DNA from: a virus
Lineage: Duplodnaviria > Caudoviricetes
Length of the DNA: 39,772 nt
Virus record (IMG/VR): IMGVR_UViG_3300036520_000017
Location: 1 to 39,772 of that record
Strand: one strand, 5' to 3'
Part shown: piece by piece, positions 2,907 to 11,444 of the stretch
Layout of the letters: every line of letters starts with the position of its first letter
Numbering within the stretch: the stretch's first letter is position 1
Program-made: the position numbers and the translations under genes
The notes under the pieces: generated by a model
Databases searched by the model: none
What the model was told of the DNA's origin: nothing
What the model saw: the letters and a program-made list of their open reading frames with translations, nothing else

Positions 2907-3412
2907 GACTTTGCCTTCCATTCTGCCAATGCAGCTTCGATCATGGCTGCGTATCGACCTAAGAACTCCTCCTCTTCGTTGGATGAAACGCTATCTCGGA
3001 AGCACGGATAGTGCTGGTAGCTTCGCCACGCCCGACGCATTGCCTCGGTTGAACGCATCGGCACCAGAACCCACTCTCCCGCCTCTTCTCTCGCCCCCAC
3101 TGGATTGCAGCGGAGGGCTTGGGATACATCGGTGACGCGCTGGACGCGCAAGTAGCCGTCCTCAAAGTCCCACGCGCAGGACCAGAAATCACCCGACCAA
3201 AAATCCGGATCATCCAGCTCCTCTCGCATTTGCAAAACGTCTGCAGGCTCACTGTCACCGGAGCCATCCCATACGCAGCGAGCGACCGCGTTTTTCATCG
3301 CGTCAAAGCCGACGACGACTTGCGAAACTTCGCCGTCAGGCCCGGCCGTTACAAGCCACATACGCTCATCGCTTAGCCGCTCGCCCGCTGTGTTGTTCAT
3401 CGTGGGTGTCAT
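2903..3412 (-). CDS. Phage hypothetical protein
   Basis: ATGA-coupled; WVLVP..TEAM...YAAMIEAA module typical of phage early genes. Confidence 0.7.
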   Translation of the reverse strand: MTPTMNNTAGERLSDERMWLVTAGPDGEVSQVVVGFDAMKNAVARCVWDGSGDSEPADVLQMREELDDPDFWSGDFWSCAWDFEDGYLRVQRVTDVSQALRCNPVGAREEAGEWVLVPMRSTEAMRRAWRSYQHYPCFRDSVSSNEEEEFLGRYAAMIEAALAEWKAKS

Positions 3413-3828
3413 GGCTGATCGATCTCCAGAACTTCGCCGGTGAAGCGGTCGTAATAGACGCCGCGGGCGCGTGAATACTTGATGCGAGCGCCAGGCATGG
3501 TGCCGCCTTGTTTCAGCCCATGCACGGCTGCGAACTGGCTGCGGGCCTTCGTCCGCGCCTTTGCTTCCGCGACTGTCTTGATTGCGTGGCAGGGGTTCTC
3601 ATGAATGGCCCGAAGATTAGCTTCGCAATGCTGCCCGCCGTCTGCCAATGGCACTTCGTGATCGAATGCCTTCTTCTGCCCTGGCCGGATGGAATTGCCA
3701 CAGTCGGGGCAGATGATCAGTCCGTCAGCATTCATCTGACGCTCTAGGATATGGCGCTGCACCGACTCCGGGATAGCCTGATCATCGTGCTTCGCCATCC
3801 ACCCCTGCGACTTGCGGGATCTAGCCAT
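3409..3828 (-). CDS. HNH endonuclease
   Basis: CPDC...DHEVPLADGGQHCEANLRAIH..CH..KT. Confidence 0.88.
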   Translation of the reverse strand: MARSRKSQGWMAKHDDQAIPESVQRHILERQMNADGLIICPDCGNSIRPGQKKAFDHEVPLADGGQHCEANLRAIHENPCHAIKTVAEAKARTKARSQFAAVHGLKQGGTMPGARIKYSRARGVYYDRFTGEVLEIDQP

Positions 3829-4036
3829 GGCTAGCCTCTTCCCATCCTTGCGTGGTGAGCGTCACCAGAGGCCCATCGTCGGTTGGCTCGACAGTTAAGA
3901 ACCCACGGTGAGACAGGGAACGGAGGGCCTTGTGCCCGGCTGCAGGGATGTTGTCCTCAGCGCTGAAGCAGTGCGAGCCGCCAGCTTGAGAAACACGCTC
4001 GAGCAGCTGGCGCTCTTGATCGGTGAGCTTTCTCAT
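3821..4036 (-). CDS. Small winged-helix-like hypothetical protein
   Basis: Coupled ORF; LRSLSHRGFL...LTTQG pattern. Confidence 0.65.
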   Translation of the reverse strand: MRKLTDQERQLLERVSQAGGSHCFSAEDNIPAAGHKALRSLSHRGFLTVEPTDDGPLVTLTTQGWEEASHG

Positions 4037-5634
4037 GCTGCTGCCCCCTGAGCTTTGTGGCTGACATCAAACATGGCAATGCGTTCGCCAATCACGCGCA
4101 TGACATTGACTGCCATGCTGTTGCCGAGCGCTTTGTATCGGGGACCATCCGCGGCAGTCTTGCCGCGATACGGGATAGCGGTAAAATCGTCAGGGAAGCC
4201 CTGCAGGCGTTCGCACTCGCGGGGGGTCAGGCGGCGGACTGCCCATGCGGTCTGAACCGCTACACTGGTGCAATCCGTGTCGAGCGTGTAAGTCGAGCCG
4301 TCGTTCAGGTAACTTTTGCCAATTGTCTTGTTGCCGCCGGCCTTAGGGTTGAAGGCAACCGCCTGCACTTCGGCCCGAGCCTCAACTGTGTACGCCAAGT
4401 CTGATTGCACGCCAACACCATCTGGGCCGCTAGCAGGGTTCTCGCGTAGAGCACCTGCTTGGATGGCATGAGCGACCAAGAAATCACTTTCAGATTTCAT
4501 TCCATTGGAATGGTCTGTCGTCCGCTGACCTAGGGTGCCCGCCACGGGCGTAGCAACTAAATTGGTATCGTCCTCTTGTCGGCGCCCGGCGTATCCGCCC
4601 TTACCACCGCTCTCCGCTCCTCGAGTGAGTGAGGCAGCGACCACCGGCACAATAGGCGTGCCCCGTCCGCTGCCATCTTCGCTGGCGTCAAAACCTTCTC
4701 CGCGCAATGAATGGGCAACCAGCAGACCTTCCCGGCTCTCGTGGTCGCCATATGGATTGCTGGTGATGGCGGGCGCAGCAGTAGCGACTAGCGTCTCCGT
4801 CTCCGCGTCGAGGCTTTGTTGTGCGCTGGCTGTCAAGCAGTACCCGACGTCGCCAGAGTTCGCGATCAAGCCGCCGTCGAGATCGAAGTCAGTTCCGAGG
4901 CCGCCACCGCCCGAAGGGCGAGCGCTAATTGTTGGGGCAACTCTTTGCCCCGCTTGTCGGCGCGGCGCAGGATCCCCGCGCAAGCTCGCGGCGTCAAATA
5001 GTACCGCAGCGGCACGTCGCCAGTCTCCAAGATATCCGACAACGAACACACGGCGCCGCCTCTGAGGGAGGGCGAAATCGTAGCCAGATGCTCGACAGAA
5101 TTGAGCGTCGAGAGTTCGGTAGGCGATCCCATACCCGAGTTCTGAAAGGCCGGCCAAAAAGGTGCCGAAGGCGTGGGTTTCGACTGCGTCGTACTCGTCG
5201 ACTGTTCCCACTTCTTGTCCGTCGAGTTCCATATCCACTGGATCTGGCGGCGGGCACGGATCGGGCGCGTCGTGGGATAGACTGGAGAAAACTCCGGGGA
5301 CGTTCTCCCAAAGAACCCATCTGGGCTGATATTTTGCAGCAATGGCAAGATACGTGAGCGCGAGATTGCCCCTTGGATCAGCCAGTCCGGCTCGGAGGCC
5401 TGCGACCGAGAAGGATTGGCAGGGGGTGCCTCCAACAAGAAGGTCAATTGGCTCATCCGGCCACTCCTGAAACTTAGTCATGTCGCCACGGTTCGGCACG
5501 TGCGGGTAGTGGTGCGCCAAGACTGCGCTCGGAAAGTTCTCGATCTCGGAAAAGAATGCAGGCTCCCAGCCCAGCGGGTGCCAAGCCATGGTCGCTGCTT
5601 CTATGCCGCTGCACACTGAGCCGTACCGCATCAC
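4033..5634 (-). CDS. DNA (cytosine-5) methyltransferase with long multi-module variable region
   Basis: Motif I SVCSGI, IV GGTPCQSFS, VI WENVPG, VIII PQRRRRVF, IX RRLTPRECERLQGFP, X YKALGNS. Confidence 0.95.
   Translation of the reverse strand: MMRYGSVCSGIEAATMAWHPLGWEPAFFSEIENFPSAVLAHHYPHVPNRGDMTKFQEWPDEPIDLLVGGTPCQSFSVAGLRAGLADPRGNLALTYLAIAAKYQPRWVLWENVPGVFSSLSHDAPDPCPPPDPVDMELDGQEVGTVDEYDAVETHAFGTFLAGLSELGYGIAYRTLDAQFCRASGYDFALPQRRRRVFVVGYLGDWRRAAAVLFDAASLRGDPAPRRQAGQRVAPTISARPSGGGGLGTDFDLDGGLIANSGDVGYCLTASAQQSLDAETETLVATAAPAITSNPYGDHESREGLLVAHSLRGEGFDASEDGSGRGTPIVPVVAASLTRGAESGGKGGYAGRRQEDDTNLVATPVAGTLGQRTTDHSNGMKSESDFLVAHAIQAGALRENPASGPDGVGVQSDLAYTVEARAEVQAVAFNPKAGGNKTIGKSYLNDGSTYTLDTDCTSVAVQTAWAVRRLTPRECERLQGFPDDFTAIPYRGKTAADGPRYKALGNSMAVNVMRVIGERIAMFDVSHKAQGAAA
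4866..5456 (-). CDS. Nested out-of-frame gene: C5-MTase beta-subunit-like protein (EcoHK31I/EaeI type)
   Basis: 196-aa ORF in +1 frame of the MTase; AGGAG SD 7 nt before ATG; C-terminal SLSDILETGDVPLRYYLTPRACAGILRRADKRGKELP motif. Confidence 0.75.
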   Translation of the reverse strand: MSQLTFLLEAPPANPSRSQASEPDWLIQGAISRSRILPLLQNISPDGFFGRTSPEFSPVYPTTRPIRARRQIQWIWNSTDKKWEQSTSTTQSKPTPSAPFWPAFQNSGMGSPTELSTLNSVEHLATISPSLRGGAVCSLSDILETGDVPLRYYLTPRACAGILRRADKRGKELPQQLALALRAVAASELTSISTAA

Positions 5635-7007: not shown

Positions 7008-7319
7008 TTGCGTGAAGTTTCACACTTCGTCATTGTCTTCCCAGACCGGCTTATCAGGGCAGGGGAGCAGGAGCGCGAGATGCTAATAGACGCGCTTAGG
7101 CGTGAATACCCGCACTACAAGTTTGACGTGTACCCAGGGCGTAGCTTCGCATCTGAAGATGAGTTCGCCATCATTCCGGTAATGGGTGGGTTAGGAGACG
7201 GCACCCCAAACGACGACCCCGACCGCGTTTACATGTGCAAGCCGCTTGATCCGAAGGTCATCCCAGATTTGGTGCGGACGCTTCAGGTCTATGAGGCTCT
7301 TGGCTCGTCTGTGAATTAG
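7008..7319 (+). CDS. Hypothetical protein, probably SOS-regulated
   Basis: AAGGAG SD + TTG start; 103 aa; stop overlaps the stop of the convergent gene. Confidence 0.7.
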   Translation: MREVSHFVIVFPDRLIRAGEQEREMLIDALRREYPHYKFDVYPGRSFASEDEFAIIPVMGGLGDGTPNDDPDRVYMCKPLDPKVIPDLVRTLQVYEALGSSVN

Positions 7320-8107
7320 GCGGCGCGGGCAATTCGACTGAGTGAGTTCATGGCCGCTGTTTCATCACCTCTAAAGATGGGCGTTTTCAACCCGCGGTTG
7401 ACCCCGCGTTGAAAGCGCCGCATCCCGATTGCTGTGAGTTTATCCGTGTCTTCAATGAGAGCAGCGGCGGCGTAGTGCTGTTGCAGTCCAGAAGTCTCGA
7501 TATACGAATGCAGTAGCTCCGCCTCTACGAATGAGGTGGTATTGTTGACTAGGAACACACCAACACGTCGGCCATCCCCCCTCGGCGAAATCACCACATC
7601 TGCAGGATTTTCAGACAATTCACCGCCTACAGCTGCATTGCGTTCTACTGTGAACGCCTCACCAAGCACGTTCTCGATAGCTTCGACGGCATCCTCTTTG
7701 AAGGTTGAGCGAACGACATCTTTCGTGAGCATTTCTAGGTCGCGGATGCGAAGCAATGCTGACATAAACATAATAGATGCTGACGCCACATCCGACGTTG
7801 CAGTGGCCTTGATGCCATAGGTCTCCGGATCCCAGAACGCGCCCGACGCGCCCAAGACGCCTTCGAGCATTTGGCGCCGCTGACCCTTCTCAATGTCTAC
7901 ACCGGAAGCTACCAGGTGGGACAGGTAGGAGCCATCATCTTCGAGTTGGAAGCCGTCGCCTGTCTCTCTAATCAGAAACGAAAGTTCATCACCGGAATTA
8001 TCGATGAAGGGCGATCGGACTAGTAGGCCGGCCGGTGCTAAATGCACATCAACTGACTCTGAAAACGTCCGAGCCAGAAGTCCCTTCAAGCTGTCTGCAG
8101 TGATCAA
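7316..8107 (-). CDS. DUF1828/DUF1829-like protein (chaperone-like N-domain + restriction-endonuclease-like C-domain)
   Basis: SPFIDNSGDELSF...LEDDG.YL..L...G, then TFKEDA and ADVVI; TTG start at 8107 overlaps upstream stop (TTGA). Confidence 0.75.
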   Translation of the reverse strand: MITADSLKGLLARTFSESVDVHLAPAGLLVRSPFIDNSGDELSFLIRETGDGFQLEDDGSYLSHLVASGVDIEKGQRRQMLEGVLGASGAFWDPETYGIKATATSDVASASIMFMSALLRIRDLEMLTKDVVRSTFKEDAVEAIENVLGEAFTVERNAAVGGELSENPADVVISPRGDGRRVGVFLVNNTTSFVEAELLHSYIETSGLQQHYAAAALIEDTDKLTAIGMRRFQRGVNRGLKTPIFRGDETAAMNSLSRIARAA

Positions 8108-8571
8108 AACAGTTGTCCTGCGGGGAAGTTGATCCGAAACCTTCGTCTTGCTTGCTCCCAAAATCGATCCGGGGACAATGCAACTATAGCGGCGCCCTTT
8201 TGTGCCTTAGGAACTCGCACCAGATCGTTAATGCTGGTCGGCCCCACTTCGAGTCCTCCACGTTCGCAATGGGCATGCGCATGAAAGCCTGGGTGAGAAC
8301 CATGATACTCAAATCGACAGACAATTGAGCCGAGCGGCTCGCCCGGCGCTACCAACCAAGCTTTCCAGTTGTCAAAGTCAGGATTGACTTGGGTGAGGAA
8401 AATGTACTCTCTTTGTTCACTTCCGGCAACAACCGATCTCCACTGCCATGGCCGCCTAAGCGGCTTGGACTTGGGATAGACGCCAGAGTGTCGAGGAGGG
8501 ATATCGTCGTACTTCCAACCTGTGTCAGAACGGATGGTCTTCACCTCTCCGACAAGGTGTCGAACTCTCAT
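8104..8571 (-). CDS. His-rich hypothetical protein (DUF6978-like)
   Basis: ATG 8571 overlaps cI stop (ATGA); CRFEYHGSHPGFHAH motif; family call is tentative. Confidence 0.7.
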   Translation of the reverse strand: MRVRHLVGEVKTIRSDTGWKYDDIPPRHSGVYPKSKPLRRPWQWRSVVAGSEQREYIFLTQVNPDFDNWKAWLVAPGEPLGSIVCRFEYHGSHPGFHAHAHCERGGLEVGPTSINDLVRVPKAQKGAAIVALSPDRFWEQARRRFRINFPAGQLF

Positions 8572-9341
8572 CGGCGCCCAACATATGCTGCGACTTTGCC
8601 GAGGATCTTCACGCCGTCGACATCCACCTCTTGAACTTCGTAGCTGGGATTGTCGCTGATGATCCGGCACTTAGGAGGAACGGTGAACATCACCCTCTGA
8701 AGTCTCTTAATCTGCGGTTCACTGTAGCCATCGCTAATCAGATAAACGCCATCAGCTCTGAGCTCGTGCTCTGTAAGATCTATGATCACTCTGTCGCCAG
8801 GGGCATAATTCGGCATCATGCTGTCGCCCTGCACACCCAAGACGATCGCACGTTCTGGATTGGCAACGGCTTCTCTCAAGTAAGATGGCGGGATGCGCCA
8901 CTCGTCTAAGATCTTGTGAGCTGAGATCGTGCCATTGCCCATGGGCAAGACCATCACCTCGCCAACAGCGCCTTCGCCGCCACCTGCTTTTGCATCTAGC
9001 TCAGGGATCGCGCCTGGAATGTTCGGGCTGTAGCTCTCGCGATCGAAGCCCTCGCCGTCTGTGTCTGGCGTTGGCTGCCAAGCCTCATCGACCGGGATGC
9101 GTTCAAGCTCGCGTACGGTTCCCCGACTGGAAAGAAATGACCCTAGCGAAATGCCAGTTGCGGCAGCGATCTTCTCAATGGTCGTGCTCGAAAGCGAGAA
9201 CTTGTGTTCTGGGTCGTTCAGCGGACGTGTCAGCGTGGTGGATGGCATGCCAGCTTTCTTGGCGAGCCCCGTTGCGGACAGCTTCGTCACTTCCATGACG
9301 TGCCGCACGTAAGCCTTGGTGTCTTCGCTCATTCCGCTCAT
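8568..9341 (-). CDS. cI: CI-like repressor (HTH + S24 autoprotease)
   Basis: N-terminal HTH (LAKKAGMPSTTLTR); AG cleavage-site-like AKAGGG; GDSM and IKRL catalytic motifs; divergent from cro. Confidence 0.93.
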   Translation of the reverse strand: MSGMSEDTKAYVRHVMEVTKLSATGLAKKAGMPSTTLTRPLNDPEHKFSLSSTTIEKIAAATGISLGSFLSSRGTVRELERIPVDEAWQPTPDTDGEGFDRESYSPNIPGAIPELDAKAGGGEGAVGEVMVLPMGNGTISAHKILDEWRIPPSYLREAVANPERAIVLGVQGDSMMPNYAPGDRVIIDLTEHELRADGVYLISDGYSEPQIKRLQRVMFTVPPKCRIISDNPSYEVQEVDVDGVKILGKVAAYVGRR

Positions 9342-9425
9342 GCGGGAACCGTAGCGAATAAATGCACAAATGCACCGTGCATTAATGCTTGCATACTGTG
9401 CATTAATGCTGCATAGTGCATAACT
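9342..9425. promoter_or_regulatory. OR operators with PR and PRM
   Basis: TGCACAAATGCA 9363-9374; TGCATTAATGCT 9378-9389 and 9399-9410; PR = TTGCAT-N17-CATAGT (9389-9417). Confidence 0.8.
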
Positions 9426-9632
9426 ATGAGCACCGCAGATGAAATATCCGCATTTGAGAAGAGTGTCCAGGATCGTGGGCTGCGCATCGCCGATGTGCTG
9501 CGCGAAGCTTCCATTGATCGGTCAATGTGGACGCGTTGGAAGAATGGTTCGACCACGCCCCGCCTAGACAATTGGCGGGCTGTAGAACGGGCTGCGGATA
9601 CACTTGCTGCAACAGCAGGTGCTGCCGCATGA
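9426..9632 (+). CDS. cro: Cro-like HTH repressor
   Basis: Small HTH (VLREASIDRSMWTRWKNG..TP) divergent from cI. Confidence 0.82.
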   Translation: MSTADEISAFEKSVQDRGLRIADVLREASIDRSMWTRWKNGSTTPRLDNWRAVERAADTLAATAGAAA

Positions 9633-9979
9633 CCCGGCCAGCGGACATTCCCCACGAGACTTACGAGCGTGCAGTTACGCTCTGCCGACGGTTCCGCAAT
9701 GCAGCAGATCAGCATGAGCTTGTTGCTCGTGTGCTCTTGGCGTTGGAAGGGCAGCCGTCCCGCGTAGGACTTACCACTCAGCAGCTGGCTACCCTGAACT
9801 TCATTGAGCAGTACCAGGCAGAACATCACGTCTCGCCTTCCTACGACGAGATCAAGGACGCATTGGGCCTCGCCAGTAAGAGCGGCGTGCATAGGCTCGT
9901 CCACGGCCTGAAAGAACGCGGCGCCATTGTCATGCTCGAGGGCCGCACGCGCTCGATGGCTCTTCGGAGGGCTGCATAA
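9629..9979 (+). CDS. LexA DNA-binding-domain protein (no peptidase domain)
   Basis: LTTQQ..LNFI...SPSYDEIKDALGLASKSGVHRLVHGLKERG; ATGA overlap with cro. Confidence 0.85.
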   Translation: MTRPADIPHETYERAVTLCRRFRNAADQHELVARVLLALEGQPSRVGLTTQQLATLNFIEQYQAEHHVSPSYDEIKDALGLASKSGVHRLVHGLKERGAIVMLEGRTRSMALRRAA

Positions 9980-11104
9980 ATGGCCGACACCAACGCCGCT
10001 CAAGACCAGATCAAAACCTACGTCGACCGCATCCTTCGCATGAAGGAAGAGGCGAAGGCTATCAATGCCGACATTCGCGAGATCTACGCGGAGGCGAAGG
10101 GCAATGGCTTTGACAAGACAACCCTGGGCAAGCTCGTCACCTACGTTGAAAAGCGCCAGACTGATGCCGACGCGGTGCTGGAGAGTGAAAGCCTCTTCGA
10201 TCTGTACTTGACGGCATACGATAGGGCGGCCGGCGTGGTTGGCACGAAACGTGCTACGCACACGCATGCACCCGAGGATCGGCAACAGCGTTCGAGGGCC
10301 CGCCTGTCTGAGGCGATGGATGACAACAAAGCTTTCTCGGCTGAGCGTCTGTCCAATGGTCTTATCAGCGAGCAGGCCCACGCCGAGAATGTAGCGCTGT
10401 CTGATGCTGCGGCTGAGAAGCTTGGCGCCGGTGCTGTATCGAAGGGCGATCCAGTTGCCGCCCTTCGCGCCGATCCTGCCATGCACATTGTTAGTGCGTC
10501 CAGTCTCAAGACTAATCCCGAAGCGAAAGCATCCGAAGACGGCGGCACGACTGCGCAGGACATTGAGACGCCTGCCGACAGTGTGACGGGAGATGCGAGT
10601 AGGGCGAGCGTCAGCGCCGGTTCTGACGCCCAACTTCCTGTGTCGGATAAGTCGGTGGAGGCTCCGGCCTCTGCCGCCCCGCGCCAGATCTATGCAGCGC
10701 CAGGTGTGATCACCTGGGAGCACACTCCACCAGAAGGCGTTAAGCGCCACGACTACAGCTATGCCTTCGGTGATCTTGGCCAAGACAGTGCCGTCATCGA
10801 GGACGACCTGGCGAACGCGGCTGCCGAGCCGATCGTCAAGATAGGTCCGGTCATCCTTGACGGCTGGGCACGCTACATCAAGACCCGCAGCATGGTGAGC
10901 TTGGACGGCAAGCCAGTTGAATATTCCGTTGCGCAGTATGACGGCACTGATCCGCTCATGGACTGCATTCGCTGGAACGTGGCCGGCCGGATTTTGAACG
11001 ATGCTCAGAAGCGCACCATAGCGCAGCGCCTCGCTCGTCTGGAGCCGAACCGCAAGGAAGAAATCTACACTGCTTTCGAGCTTGGAATGGAGCTCGTCGC
11101 GTGA
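9980..11104 (+). CDS. GapR-like (DUF2312) protein fused to a ParB-like C-terminal domain
   Basis: QIKTYVDRILRMKEEAKAINADIREIYAEAKGNGFD; C-terminal EPIVK...ILDGWARY...NVAGRILNDAQK; GGAGG SD. Confidence 0.82.
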   Translation: MADTNAAQDQIKTYVDRILRMKEEAKAINADIREIYAEAKGNGFDKTTLGKLVTYVEKRQTDADAVLESESLFDLYLTAYDRAAGVVGTKRATHTHAPEDRQQRSRARLSEAMDDNKAFSAERLSNGLISEQAHAENVALSDAAAEKLGAGAVSKGDPVAALRADPAMHIVSASSLKTNPEAKASEDGGTTAQDIETPADSVTGDASRASVSAGSDAQLPVSDKSVEAPASAAPRQIYAAPGVITWEHTPPEGVKRHDYSYAFGDLGQDSAVIEDDLANAAAEPIVKIGPVILDGWARYIKTRSMVSLDGKPVEYSVAQYDGTDPLMDCIRWNVAGRILNDAQKRTIAQRLARLEPNRKEEIYTAFELGMELVA

Positions 11105-11196
11105 TGTCGCGGAAACTTGCAGCAGCTGCATTGGCTGGTCTCTGGATGGTTGCGGGCGCTGCCTTGACCCTCTGGATTCTTTCGGGGCCGATCTGA
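11101..11196 (+). CDS. 31-aa single-TM peptide (not in ORF track)
   Basis: MMSRKLAAAALAGLWMVAGAALTLWILSGPI; GTGA overlap with upstream stop. Confidence 0.5.
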   Translation: MMSRKLAAAALAGLWMVAGAALTLWILSGPI

Positions 11197-11198
11197 TG

Positions 11199-11444
11199 TC
11201 AGCCCGCTTTGCCACCATCAAGCACAGCCAGGAACGGCATCGCTCTGACGATGCGCACCCCAGGCTTCATATTCGGGCGGACCTCCTCCCCGCCCGAGGG
11301 CGAGTGATCGTCTTCGATTCCCTCATCGAGAAGGTCATTCGCCCATTTCATCATGTGCGGTTCGACGGCCCCAACCGTCTTTCCGCGCAGCTTCTGCCGG
11401 CGCAGCAATGCTTTCAACGTCTCGCTGACCGGCTCCATCGTCAT
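11199..11444 (-). CDS. Antisense hypothetical protein (MTMEPVSETLKALL...LAVLDGGKAG)
   Basis: AAGGA SD 8 nt before ATG; protein-like composition; competing + strand ORF 11196-11543. Confidence 0.5.
   Translation of the reverse strand: MTMEPVSETLKALLRRQKLRGKTVGAVEPHMMKWANDLLDEGIEDDHSPSGGEEVRPNMKPGVRIVRAMPFLAVLDGGKAG

Follow-up and report, generated by a model that had tools for sequence, protein, structure and literature searches.

The prophage analyzed here encodes a C5 cytosine methyltransferase (alpha) whose +1 frame holds a second, shorter open reading frame (ORF), and we consider it probable that this frame is a conserved gene for a small subunit, beta, which docks on alpha and supplies a module that alpha is missing, the two chains forming an alpha/beta heterodimer. 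A preliminary description of this DNA had claimed a 196-codon +1-frame ORF inside the methyltransferase gene and a strong Shine-Dalgarno (SD) sequence written in methyltransferase codons, and both were found at the positions listed in Table 1. It had also held that the main chain keeps its own motifs IX and X and therefore looks complete; both motifs are indeed kept on alpha, but the conserved (core) module of beta is absent from it. The sequence comparisons described below are best read as pointing to an obligate alpha/beta enzyme that carries motif IX on its alpha chain.

TABLE 1 Features of the alpha and beta genes in the window
Feature	Coordinates	Strand	Description
Alpha, C5 cytosine methyltransferase	4033..5631	-	532 aa; PF00145, phrog_116, TIGR00675
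Alpha motif IV (GGTPCQSFS, catalytic Cys)	5407..5433	-	Overlapped by the N terminus of beta
Alpha motif VIII (QRRRRVFVVG)	5035..5064	-	LSDILE of beta starts at 5042, within the last motif VIII codons
Alpha motif IX (RRLTPRECERLQGFPD)	4189..4236	-	True homologue of the motif IX of EcoHK31I beta
Alpha motif X (RYKALGNSMAV)	4108..4140	-	
Alpha variable region	4243..4959	-	About eight TRD-like modules of 25 to 40 aa, patchily common to relatives
Beta, nested ATG ORF	4866..5456	-	196 aa; +1 frame of alpha; alpha codons 59 to 256
Beta SD (CAGGAG)	5464..5469	-	Written in the Gln-Glu codons of alpha; 7 nt 5' of the ATG
Conserved beta module	4902..5156	-	Residues 101 to 185; W...NSGMG hairpin region, LSDILE..YYL, two helices (ILRRA..RGK.LP..L..AL)
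Insertion of about 30 codons open in both frames	5196..5282	-	Approximate boundaries

Alpha is an apparently orphan methyltransferase of a temperate phage

The window, that is, the whole stretch of DNA under study, is the entire 39,772-base provirus record of a temperate tailed phage, with genes for integrase, repressor, replication initiator, terminase, portal, capsid, and endolysin. The alpha gene is an apparently orphan methyltransferase gene in the leftward early region of the prophage; a phage-type HNH gene (3409-3828) follows it downstream, and no restriction family was found beside alpha among the neighbors scanned, which were a subset of the ORFs. Elsewhere in the window, at 7316-8670 (minus strand), a gene of the DUF1828 family and a 188-aa ORF that is unclassified lie directly 3' of the repressor, a slot typical for cargo expressed in the lysogen. 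A 374-aa protein encoded at 9980-11104 (plus strand) carries a GapR-like DNA-binding domain (PF10073) at its N terminus and a long C-terminal part that is unclassified, and a 627-codon open frame antisense to the cro/LexA-like and GapR-like genes (9338-11221, minus strand) is probably a GC-rich shadow frame.

Alpha matches PF00145 (E value, 1.8e-42) and phrog_116, and its match to TIGR00675 exceeds the cut-off; a GTG lies at 5634, one codon 5' of alpha. Motifs I to VIII are followed along the chain by a long variable region and then by motifs IX and X, and all ten motifs of a PF00145 C5-methyltransferase are present together with the catalytic PC in motif IV, which we take, from established knowledge of these enzymes, to be the GGTPCQSFS stretch in Table 1. 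The structure model of alpha matches the HaeIII and HhaI folds. Modeled alone (pTM, 0.58), alpha has a confident catalytic domain, and residues 232 to 428 are disordered, with pLDDT values below 50 over most of this stretch. In two relatives, P0178 and P0227, an intein-like insert (PF13403) is found in or near motif IV.

Each module of the variable region is present in 1 to 16 of 29 representative loci, and the distance between motifs VIII and IX in relatives ranges from 100 to 386 aa. We infer that these modules are target-recognition domains (TRDs); their shuffling among relatives hints at multispecificity. The last TRD-like segment (YLNDGSTYTLD/YRNDGETYTLD) is similar in the alpha of the window and in the EcoHK31I-type alpha. 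No clear depletion of 6-mer palindromes was seen in the window (the lowest z value of 64 was -2.1), nor was YGGCCR, the sequence recognized by M.EcoHK31I, avoided there (87 sites observed versus 89 expected). In multispecific phage C5-methyltransferases, arrays of modules set the targets. Like the SPbeta/SPR-type enzymes (MtbP, NC_001884), alpha is an apparently orphan phage methyltransferase with a modular variable region; unlike the window pair, MtbP is a single chain. TRD arrays of multispecific phage methyltransferases are mentioned in passages of a review (PMC12707154).

Conservation of the nested frame

Beta has no match in Pfam or NCBIfam, and its profile has none among PDB sequences at E values up to 10. 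A total of 1,665 beta homologues were found, 118 of which were used to build the beta profile. A search with alpha yielded 385 viral relatives, and the best 80 of the 385 were taken for locus comparison. The preliminary description had named interruption of the +1 frame in close homologues as an observation that would count against it; the +1 segment matching the beta profile is uninterrupted in all 80 of these loci, and the beta ATG lies 23 to 29 nt 5' of motif IV in 77 of them. CAG-GAG serves as the SD codons in 22 of the 24 representatives having DMxK[FY]QEW, a share to be compared with the approximately 33% expected from downstream codon use.

Avoidance of stop codons in homologous methyltransferases, which had been proposed as a check, is pronounced. 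Representatives with less than 90% core identity were chosen (30 from 79 usable of 81 sequences, one of which was dropped for having too few control codons, leaving 29); under synonymous resampling of alpha, 125 stops were expected in the 4,779 codons of the +1 overlap and none was present, each tested stretch being bounded by its own ORF stop. The +2 control frame of the same 29 representatives has 150 stops versus 133 expected, and the +1 frame downstream of beta has 178 in 6,411 codons. For the window, the probability that the +1 frame is open under such resampling is 0.006. Because the loci are related, neither the stop counts nor the locus counts are independent trials. On this sequence evidence, the nested ORF is a real conserved frame, beyond chance.

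The pattern of codon changes points in the same direction for the C-terminal part of beta. Heterozygosity at 4-fold sites is 0.26 over the core versus 0.61 and 0.60 outside the overlap, and of the codons changed in the +1 frame, fractions of 0.42 and 0.35 are silent over alpha codons 203 to 245, more than for alpha itself there, compared with 0.09 to 0.14 elsewhere. These changes indicate that protein-level selection acts on beta residues ~144 to 186. The delimitation of the conserved module in Table 1 also draws on the columns that are invariant in the alignment A1. No excess of silent changes was seen over the first two-thirds of the +1 frame of beta (0.12 to 0.14), and that part of the protein may therefore be largely a passenger of alpha. 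The conservation of the N-terminal part of beta, much of which follows alpha, and the lack of a family match would suit a vestigial ORF that is not translated, one that merely results from the constraints on alpha, or a protein unrelated to the methyltransferase; we regard this as quite improbable in view of the stop avoidance relative to the matched +2 control, the +1-frame selection over the core, and the in-frame fusion of the module to methyltransferases in 81 loci.

Upstream of the module, the insertion listed in Table 1 forms an acidic loop in alpha and a Trp-containing segment in beta; roughly one-fifth to one-quarter of the 118 beta homologues have it, and the spacing between motifs VI and VIII is 81 in the window versus 42 to 49 in most loci. 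Tryptophans recur at this insertion in beta homologues, and the insertion may be selected in the beta frame.

The position of LSDILE within the last codons of motif VIII raises the question of programmed frameshifting into the +1 frame, which would yield a chimeric chain (motifs I to VIII plus the module) whose partner is either full-length alpha or a TRD-IX-X piece. Such a shift would recreate the order found in the single chains P0229, P0211, and P0200, but the +1 frame is kept open over the ~80 codons upstream, a conserved SD and ATG start is present in 77 of 80 loci, and, in excerpts of the published work on M.EcoHK31I, activity depends on the start codons of beta (PMC2836561); we therefore hold frameshifting to be highly improbable and retain translation of a separate beta as the favored reading.

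Relationship to M.EcoHK31I

The nested two-chain principle is already known from M.EcoHK31I, and M.EaeI is presumably of a like kind. In order to compare beta with its counterpart in M.EcoHK31I, we used a locus encoding chains of 309 and 176 aa (L084, NZ_CP024886.1) that was located with a published EcoHK31I primer, taken from the supplementary part of PMC2836561. In 73 of 5,426 E. coli genomes, the 309-aa methyltransferase so located has a NotI-family endonuclease next to it, and the 176-aa +1 ORF of L084 matches the primer-derived beta residues. The homology between the two betas that the preliminary description had proposed to examine is borne out by BLASTP (35% over 95 aa; pairwise E value, 1e-9) and by a profile match of the window beta to residues 10 to 111 of the EcoHK31I-type beta (E value, 2e-18); the module common to both reads W.NSG ... 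LS.ILE ... YL ... I.RRA..RG..LP..L..AL.

In both systems, beta is nested in alpha's +1 frame with the same register relative to motif VIII, and the alpha chains are 31% identical over motifs I to VIII. They differ in that the window has motif IX on alpha, a long module array in alpha, a beta that starts before motif IV behind a strong SD and ends ~10 residues after the module, and an apparently orphan gene in a prophage, unlike L084 with its neighboring NotI-family endonuclease. Motif IX lies on beta in 73 of 80 EcoHK31I-like genome loci, whereas motifs IX and X lie on alpha in 76 of the best 80 of the 385 window-like viral loci. As in M.EcoHK31I, a second chain is encoded entirely within the alpha gene in a different frame, but since alpha, and not beta, carries motif IX, the pair is not a strict member of the EcoHK31I type. 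It likely works as an EcoHK31I-type enzyme does.

As reported in passages of PMC2836561, EcoHK31I alpha alone is inactive, silencing of the beta start codons abolishes methylation, and beta provided in trans restores it; with zinc-finger-tethered beta, activity drops sharply between deletions 69 and 70 (PMC2836561). Residue 70 of EcoHK31I beta is the start of the shared module. The need for beta in M.EcoHK31I could be due to motif IX alone.

The beta of the window, on the other hand, has no motif IX. The preliminary description had taken YLTPRAC, near the end of the ORF, as a mirror of motif IX (RLTPREC) and had regarded beta as a second small domain that gives dual or switchable specificity. 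YLTPRAC is present, but the ORF extends 22 residues past the ...GKELP with which it was said to end, and a motif IX profile scores the window beta at only -4.1 bits, compared with 50 bits for the window alpha and 52 bits for residues 150 to 170 of the EcoHK31I-type beta (both in the training set) and 21.7 bits for E. coli Dcm (outside the training set). In alignment, YLTPRAC pairs with FLNPEQL, ~70 residues before motif IX of the EcoHK31I-type beta, and the real motif IX of that beta (residues 150 to 170) pairs with the window alpha. We therefore rejected YLTPRAC as motif IX and attribute its likeness to RLTPREC to coincidence.

An alternative small domain carrying its own motif IX consequently receives next to no credence from us. 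The surface likeness just described and the retention of IX and X on alpha had spoken for it, but none of the 308 two-ORF loci has motif IX on both chains, beta showed no TRD-like module, no locus has two cores, and the shuffled module array of alpha better explains variation in specificity. Nor does beta have a counterpart anywhere in the alpha family (hhalign probability, 0.1%), which suggests that it is a complement of alpha rather than a duplicate small domain.

The module in nested, split, and fused forms

The distribution of the module was surveyed in 401 loci gathered with five queries, whose counts mirror the queries and not natural frequencies. The module is nested in the +1 frame in 297 loci, fused behind motif X in 81, and in frame after motif VIII in 1; the others comprise 2 without a core, both of which matched only part of the query, 2 with the core elsewhere, and 18 whose catalytic ORF is broken. 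Of the 397 loci with a core, none has two copies of it. These comparisons indicate one core module per locus, which is either nested, placed in frame past motif VIII, or attached behind motif X. In the 81 fusions, the +1 frame is open in none (median, 8 stops), and in L156, L159, and L164 it is closed by 8 to 10 stops. EcoHK31I-like genomes have the module fused behind motif X in 3 of 80 cases; L156 and L159 are end-to-end fusions of EcoHK31I-type alpha and beta in which motif IX lies at the extreme C terminus, after motif X.

These fusions bear on whether beta is accessory or regulatory, i.e., made and bound to alpha but stabilizing, timing, or tuning a chain that is active alone. None of the ten motifs is missing from alpha, whose catalytic fold is modeled with confidence by itself, and the separate conserved SD and ATG of beta would permit separate control, so that a regulatory role through the supply of beta is possible; however, every loss of the nested frame goes together with an in-frame copy of the module (all 81 fusions are closed), which suits a constitutive structural part, and EcoHK31I alpha is inactive alone in the excerpted account cited above (PMC2836561). 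We judge an accessory beta to be unlikely and continue to favor beta as a required subunit.

Further arrangements were found among longer chains. At least 29 of 106 longer matches to the beta profile are beta fused to the variable region plus motifs IX and X, and in the single chains P0229, P0211, P0200, and P0231 the module lies ~55 to 65 residues after motif VIII; some other single chains may be frameshifted copies. The loci found with P0203 and P0229 are window-type in 48 of 81 cases and have motifs IX and X on beta in 12 of 81, only one viral locus being contributed by P0229 as the query. In the phages found with P0203 (L165 to L245), the TRD-IX-X part is encoded on alpha (48/81), on beta (12/81), or on a third ORF, suggesting that frame switching is frequent within the variable region of these loci, with assembly errors being possible. 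A metagenome scan with the fusion L164 as the query gave 376 relatives, 80 of which were used; L164 (1971-3254) and these loci (L252 to L331) encode single-chain C5-methyltransferases, with the module behind motif X in 78 of the 80 and the +1 frame closed. P0183, P0214, P0219, and P0158 are circularly permuted C5-methyltransferases (motifs IX and X before IV to VIII) with a C-terminal beta module. In profile comparisons, the beta family matches the C terminus of the fusion family at 97.8% and the post-VIII segment of the single chains at 99.1%, the latter set having been picked partly with the beta profile, which makes that value partly circular.

The beta profile matches 115 of the 50,697 phage records and 522 of the 72,556 plasmid records (the frames were checked for P1 and Omega only) and 5,140 clusters at 50% identity among 1.84 billion representatives, fused forms included. 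The phage P1 Dmt gene (NC_005856, P1_gp069) resembles that of the window in having an open +1 frame of 163 codons that holds the module (L081:2784-3275) and in carrying motifs IX and X on the main chain; unlike the window alpha, Dmt has a C-terminal Dam domain. The RefSeq annotation of this stretch of P1 shows dmt alone, with C5 methylation given as "perhaps" present. A table within PMC10695390 lists "dmt-B" and "dmt-A," the tag number of dmt-A being that of trnA in RefSeq. In mycobacteriophage Omega, the nested frame lies in gene 127 (L082:2258-2737), and it is unannotated in the fetched records of both phages; the main chain of Omega is itself divided between genes 127 and 128, so that there are three pieces.

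M.AquI is also a two-chain enzyme, divided, as described in the consulted part of PMC3404938, into one chain with motifs I to VIII plus a portion of the variable region and another with the distal variable region and motifs IX and X. Compared by description, the relatives in which beta is fused to TRD-IX-X divide alike; unlike M.AquI, which is known here by description, the window has IX and X on alpha and a second chain that is nested. In Arthrobacter phage Andrew, gp43 and gp44 (L083:2001-3150) form a two-frame methyltransferase with LLPTP repeats in the second chain; no core was detected, and a beta-like nature of gp44 was not supported.

Structure of the module in a natural fusion

Structural support for the module comes from the fused relative L164 and not from the pair in the window. 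L164 has its own motifs IX and X plus the module, and its AlphaFold model (pTM, 0.89) folds as one unit and gives the module as a hairpin plus helices with pLDDT values of 90 to 95; in our reading, the module packs on a chain that otherwise looks complete. An order-bound structure alignment (VIA) of the L164 model with solved methyltransferases (HhaI, Z score of 24.7; 254 to 265 of 321 to 327 residues) covers only residues 3 to 308 and leaves the C-terminal permuted module unaligned. When the single-chain profile A3 and P0211 were compared with the PDB, the best stretches stopped before the module.

The core profile matches residues 249 to 272 of SPbeta MtbP, after motif VIII, weakly, at 9.9 bits versus a maximum of 3.7 in 500 shuffles; on E. 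coli Dcm it falls at the expected place (309 to 326) but at -2.0 bits, which is not significant. TIGR00675 aligns residues 60 to 171 of the EcoHK31I-type beta, motif IX included, to model positions 217 to 302 (E value, 1.4e-4). These matches lend modest support to the view that the module corresponds to the post-motif-VIII segment of ordinary C5-methyltransferases.

Proposed mechanism and implications

We propose that one mRNA would give both alpha and beta, the latter being translated from its own internal SD, and that beta would bind alpha as EcoHK31I beta does, its module completing the part between motif VIII of the catalytic domain and the target-recognition region. The array of about eight modules in alpha would set the sequence specificity, and the enzyme would probably protect the phage from host restriction. 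Since the module begins in the DNA where motif VIII ends, a frameshift at that point together with later ones could explain the nested and split layouts; such frameshifts would have moved the TRD, motif IX, and motif X between the two frames, giving rise to the layouts of the window, of M.EcoHK31I, and of relatives with TRD-IX-X on beta.

More broadly, we lean slightly toward the view that thousands of complete-looking phage C5-methyltransferases, P1 Dmt among them, are two-chain enzymes with an essential chain in the +1 frame, their parts (core module, TRD array, IX, and X) being dealt between two frames and the overlap-free fusions forming the other end state; M.EcoHK31I would then represent a minority layout that shares the module and not motif IX. 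No description of an IX-less beta within a ten-motif alpha, or of the fused series, was found in the literature searched, which did not extend to REBASE or to the original EcoHK31I and P1 genome papers.

Should beta prove necessary, a subunit would be absent from the annotation of a very large phage and mobile-element family (the 5,140 clusters above), and many of the phage methyltransferases now listed as single proteins would be two-chain enzymes. Recoded or codon-optimized copies of such genes would be predicted to lose beta and to test falsely inactive, and cytosine methylation by P1 Dmt could be tested directly by comparing the gene with its nested frame intact and removed. The common view that beta is the motif IX subunit of M.EcoHK31I would be revised, and the nested, split, and fused forms would constitute a natural series for the origin and loss of long overlapping genes.
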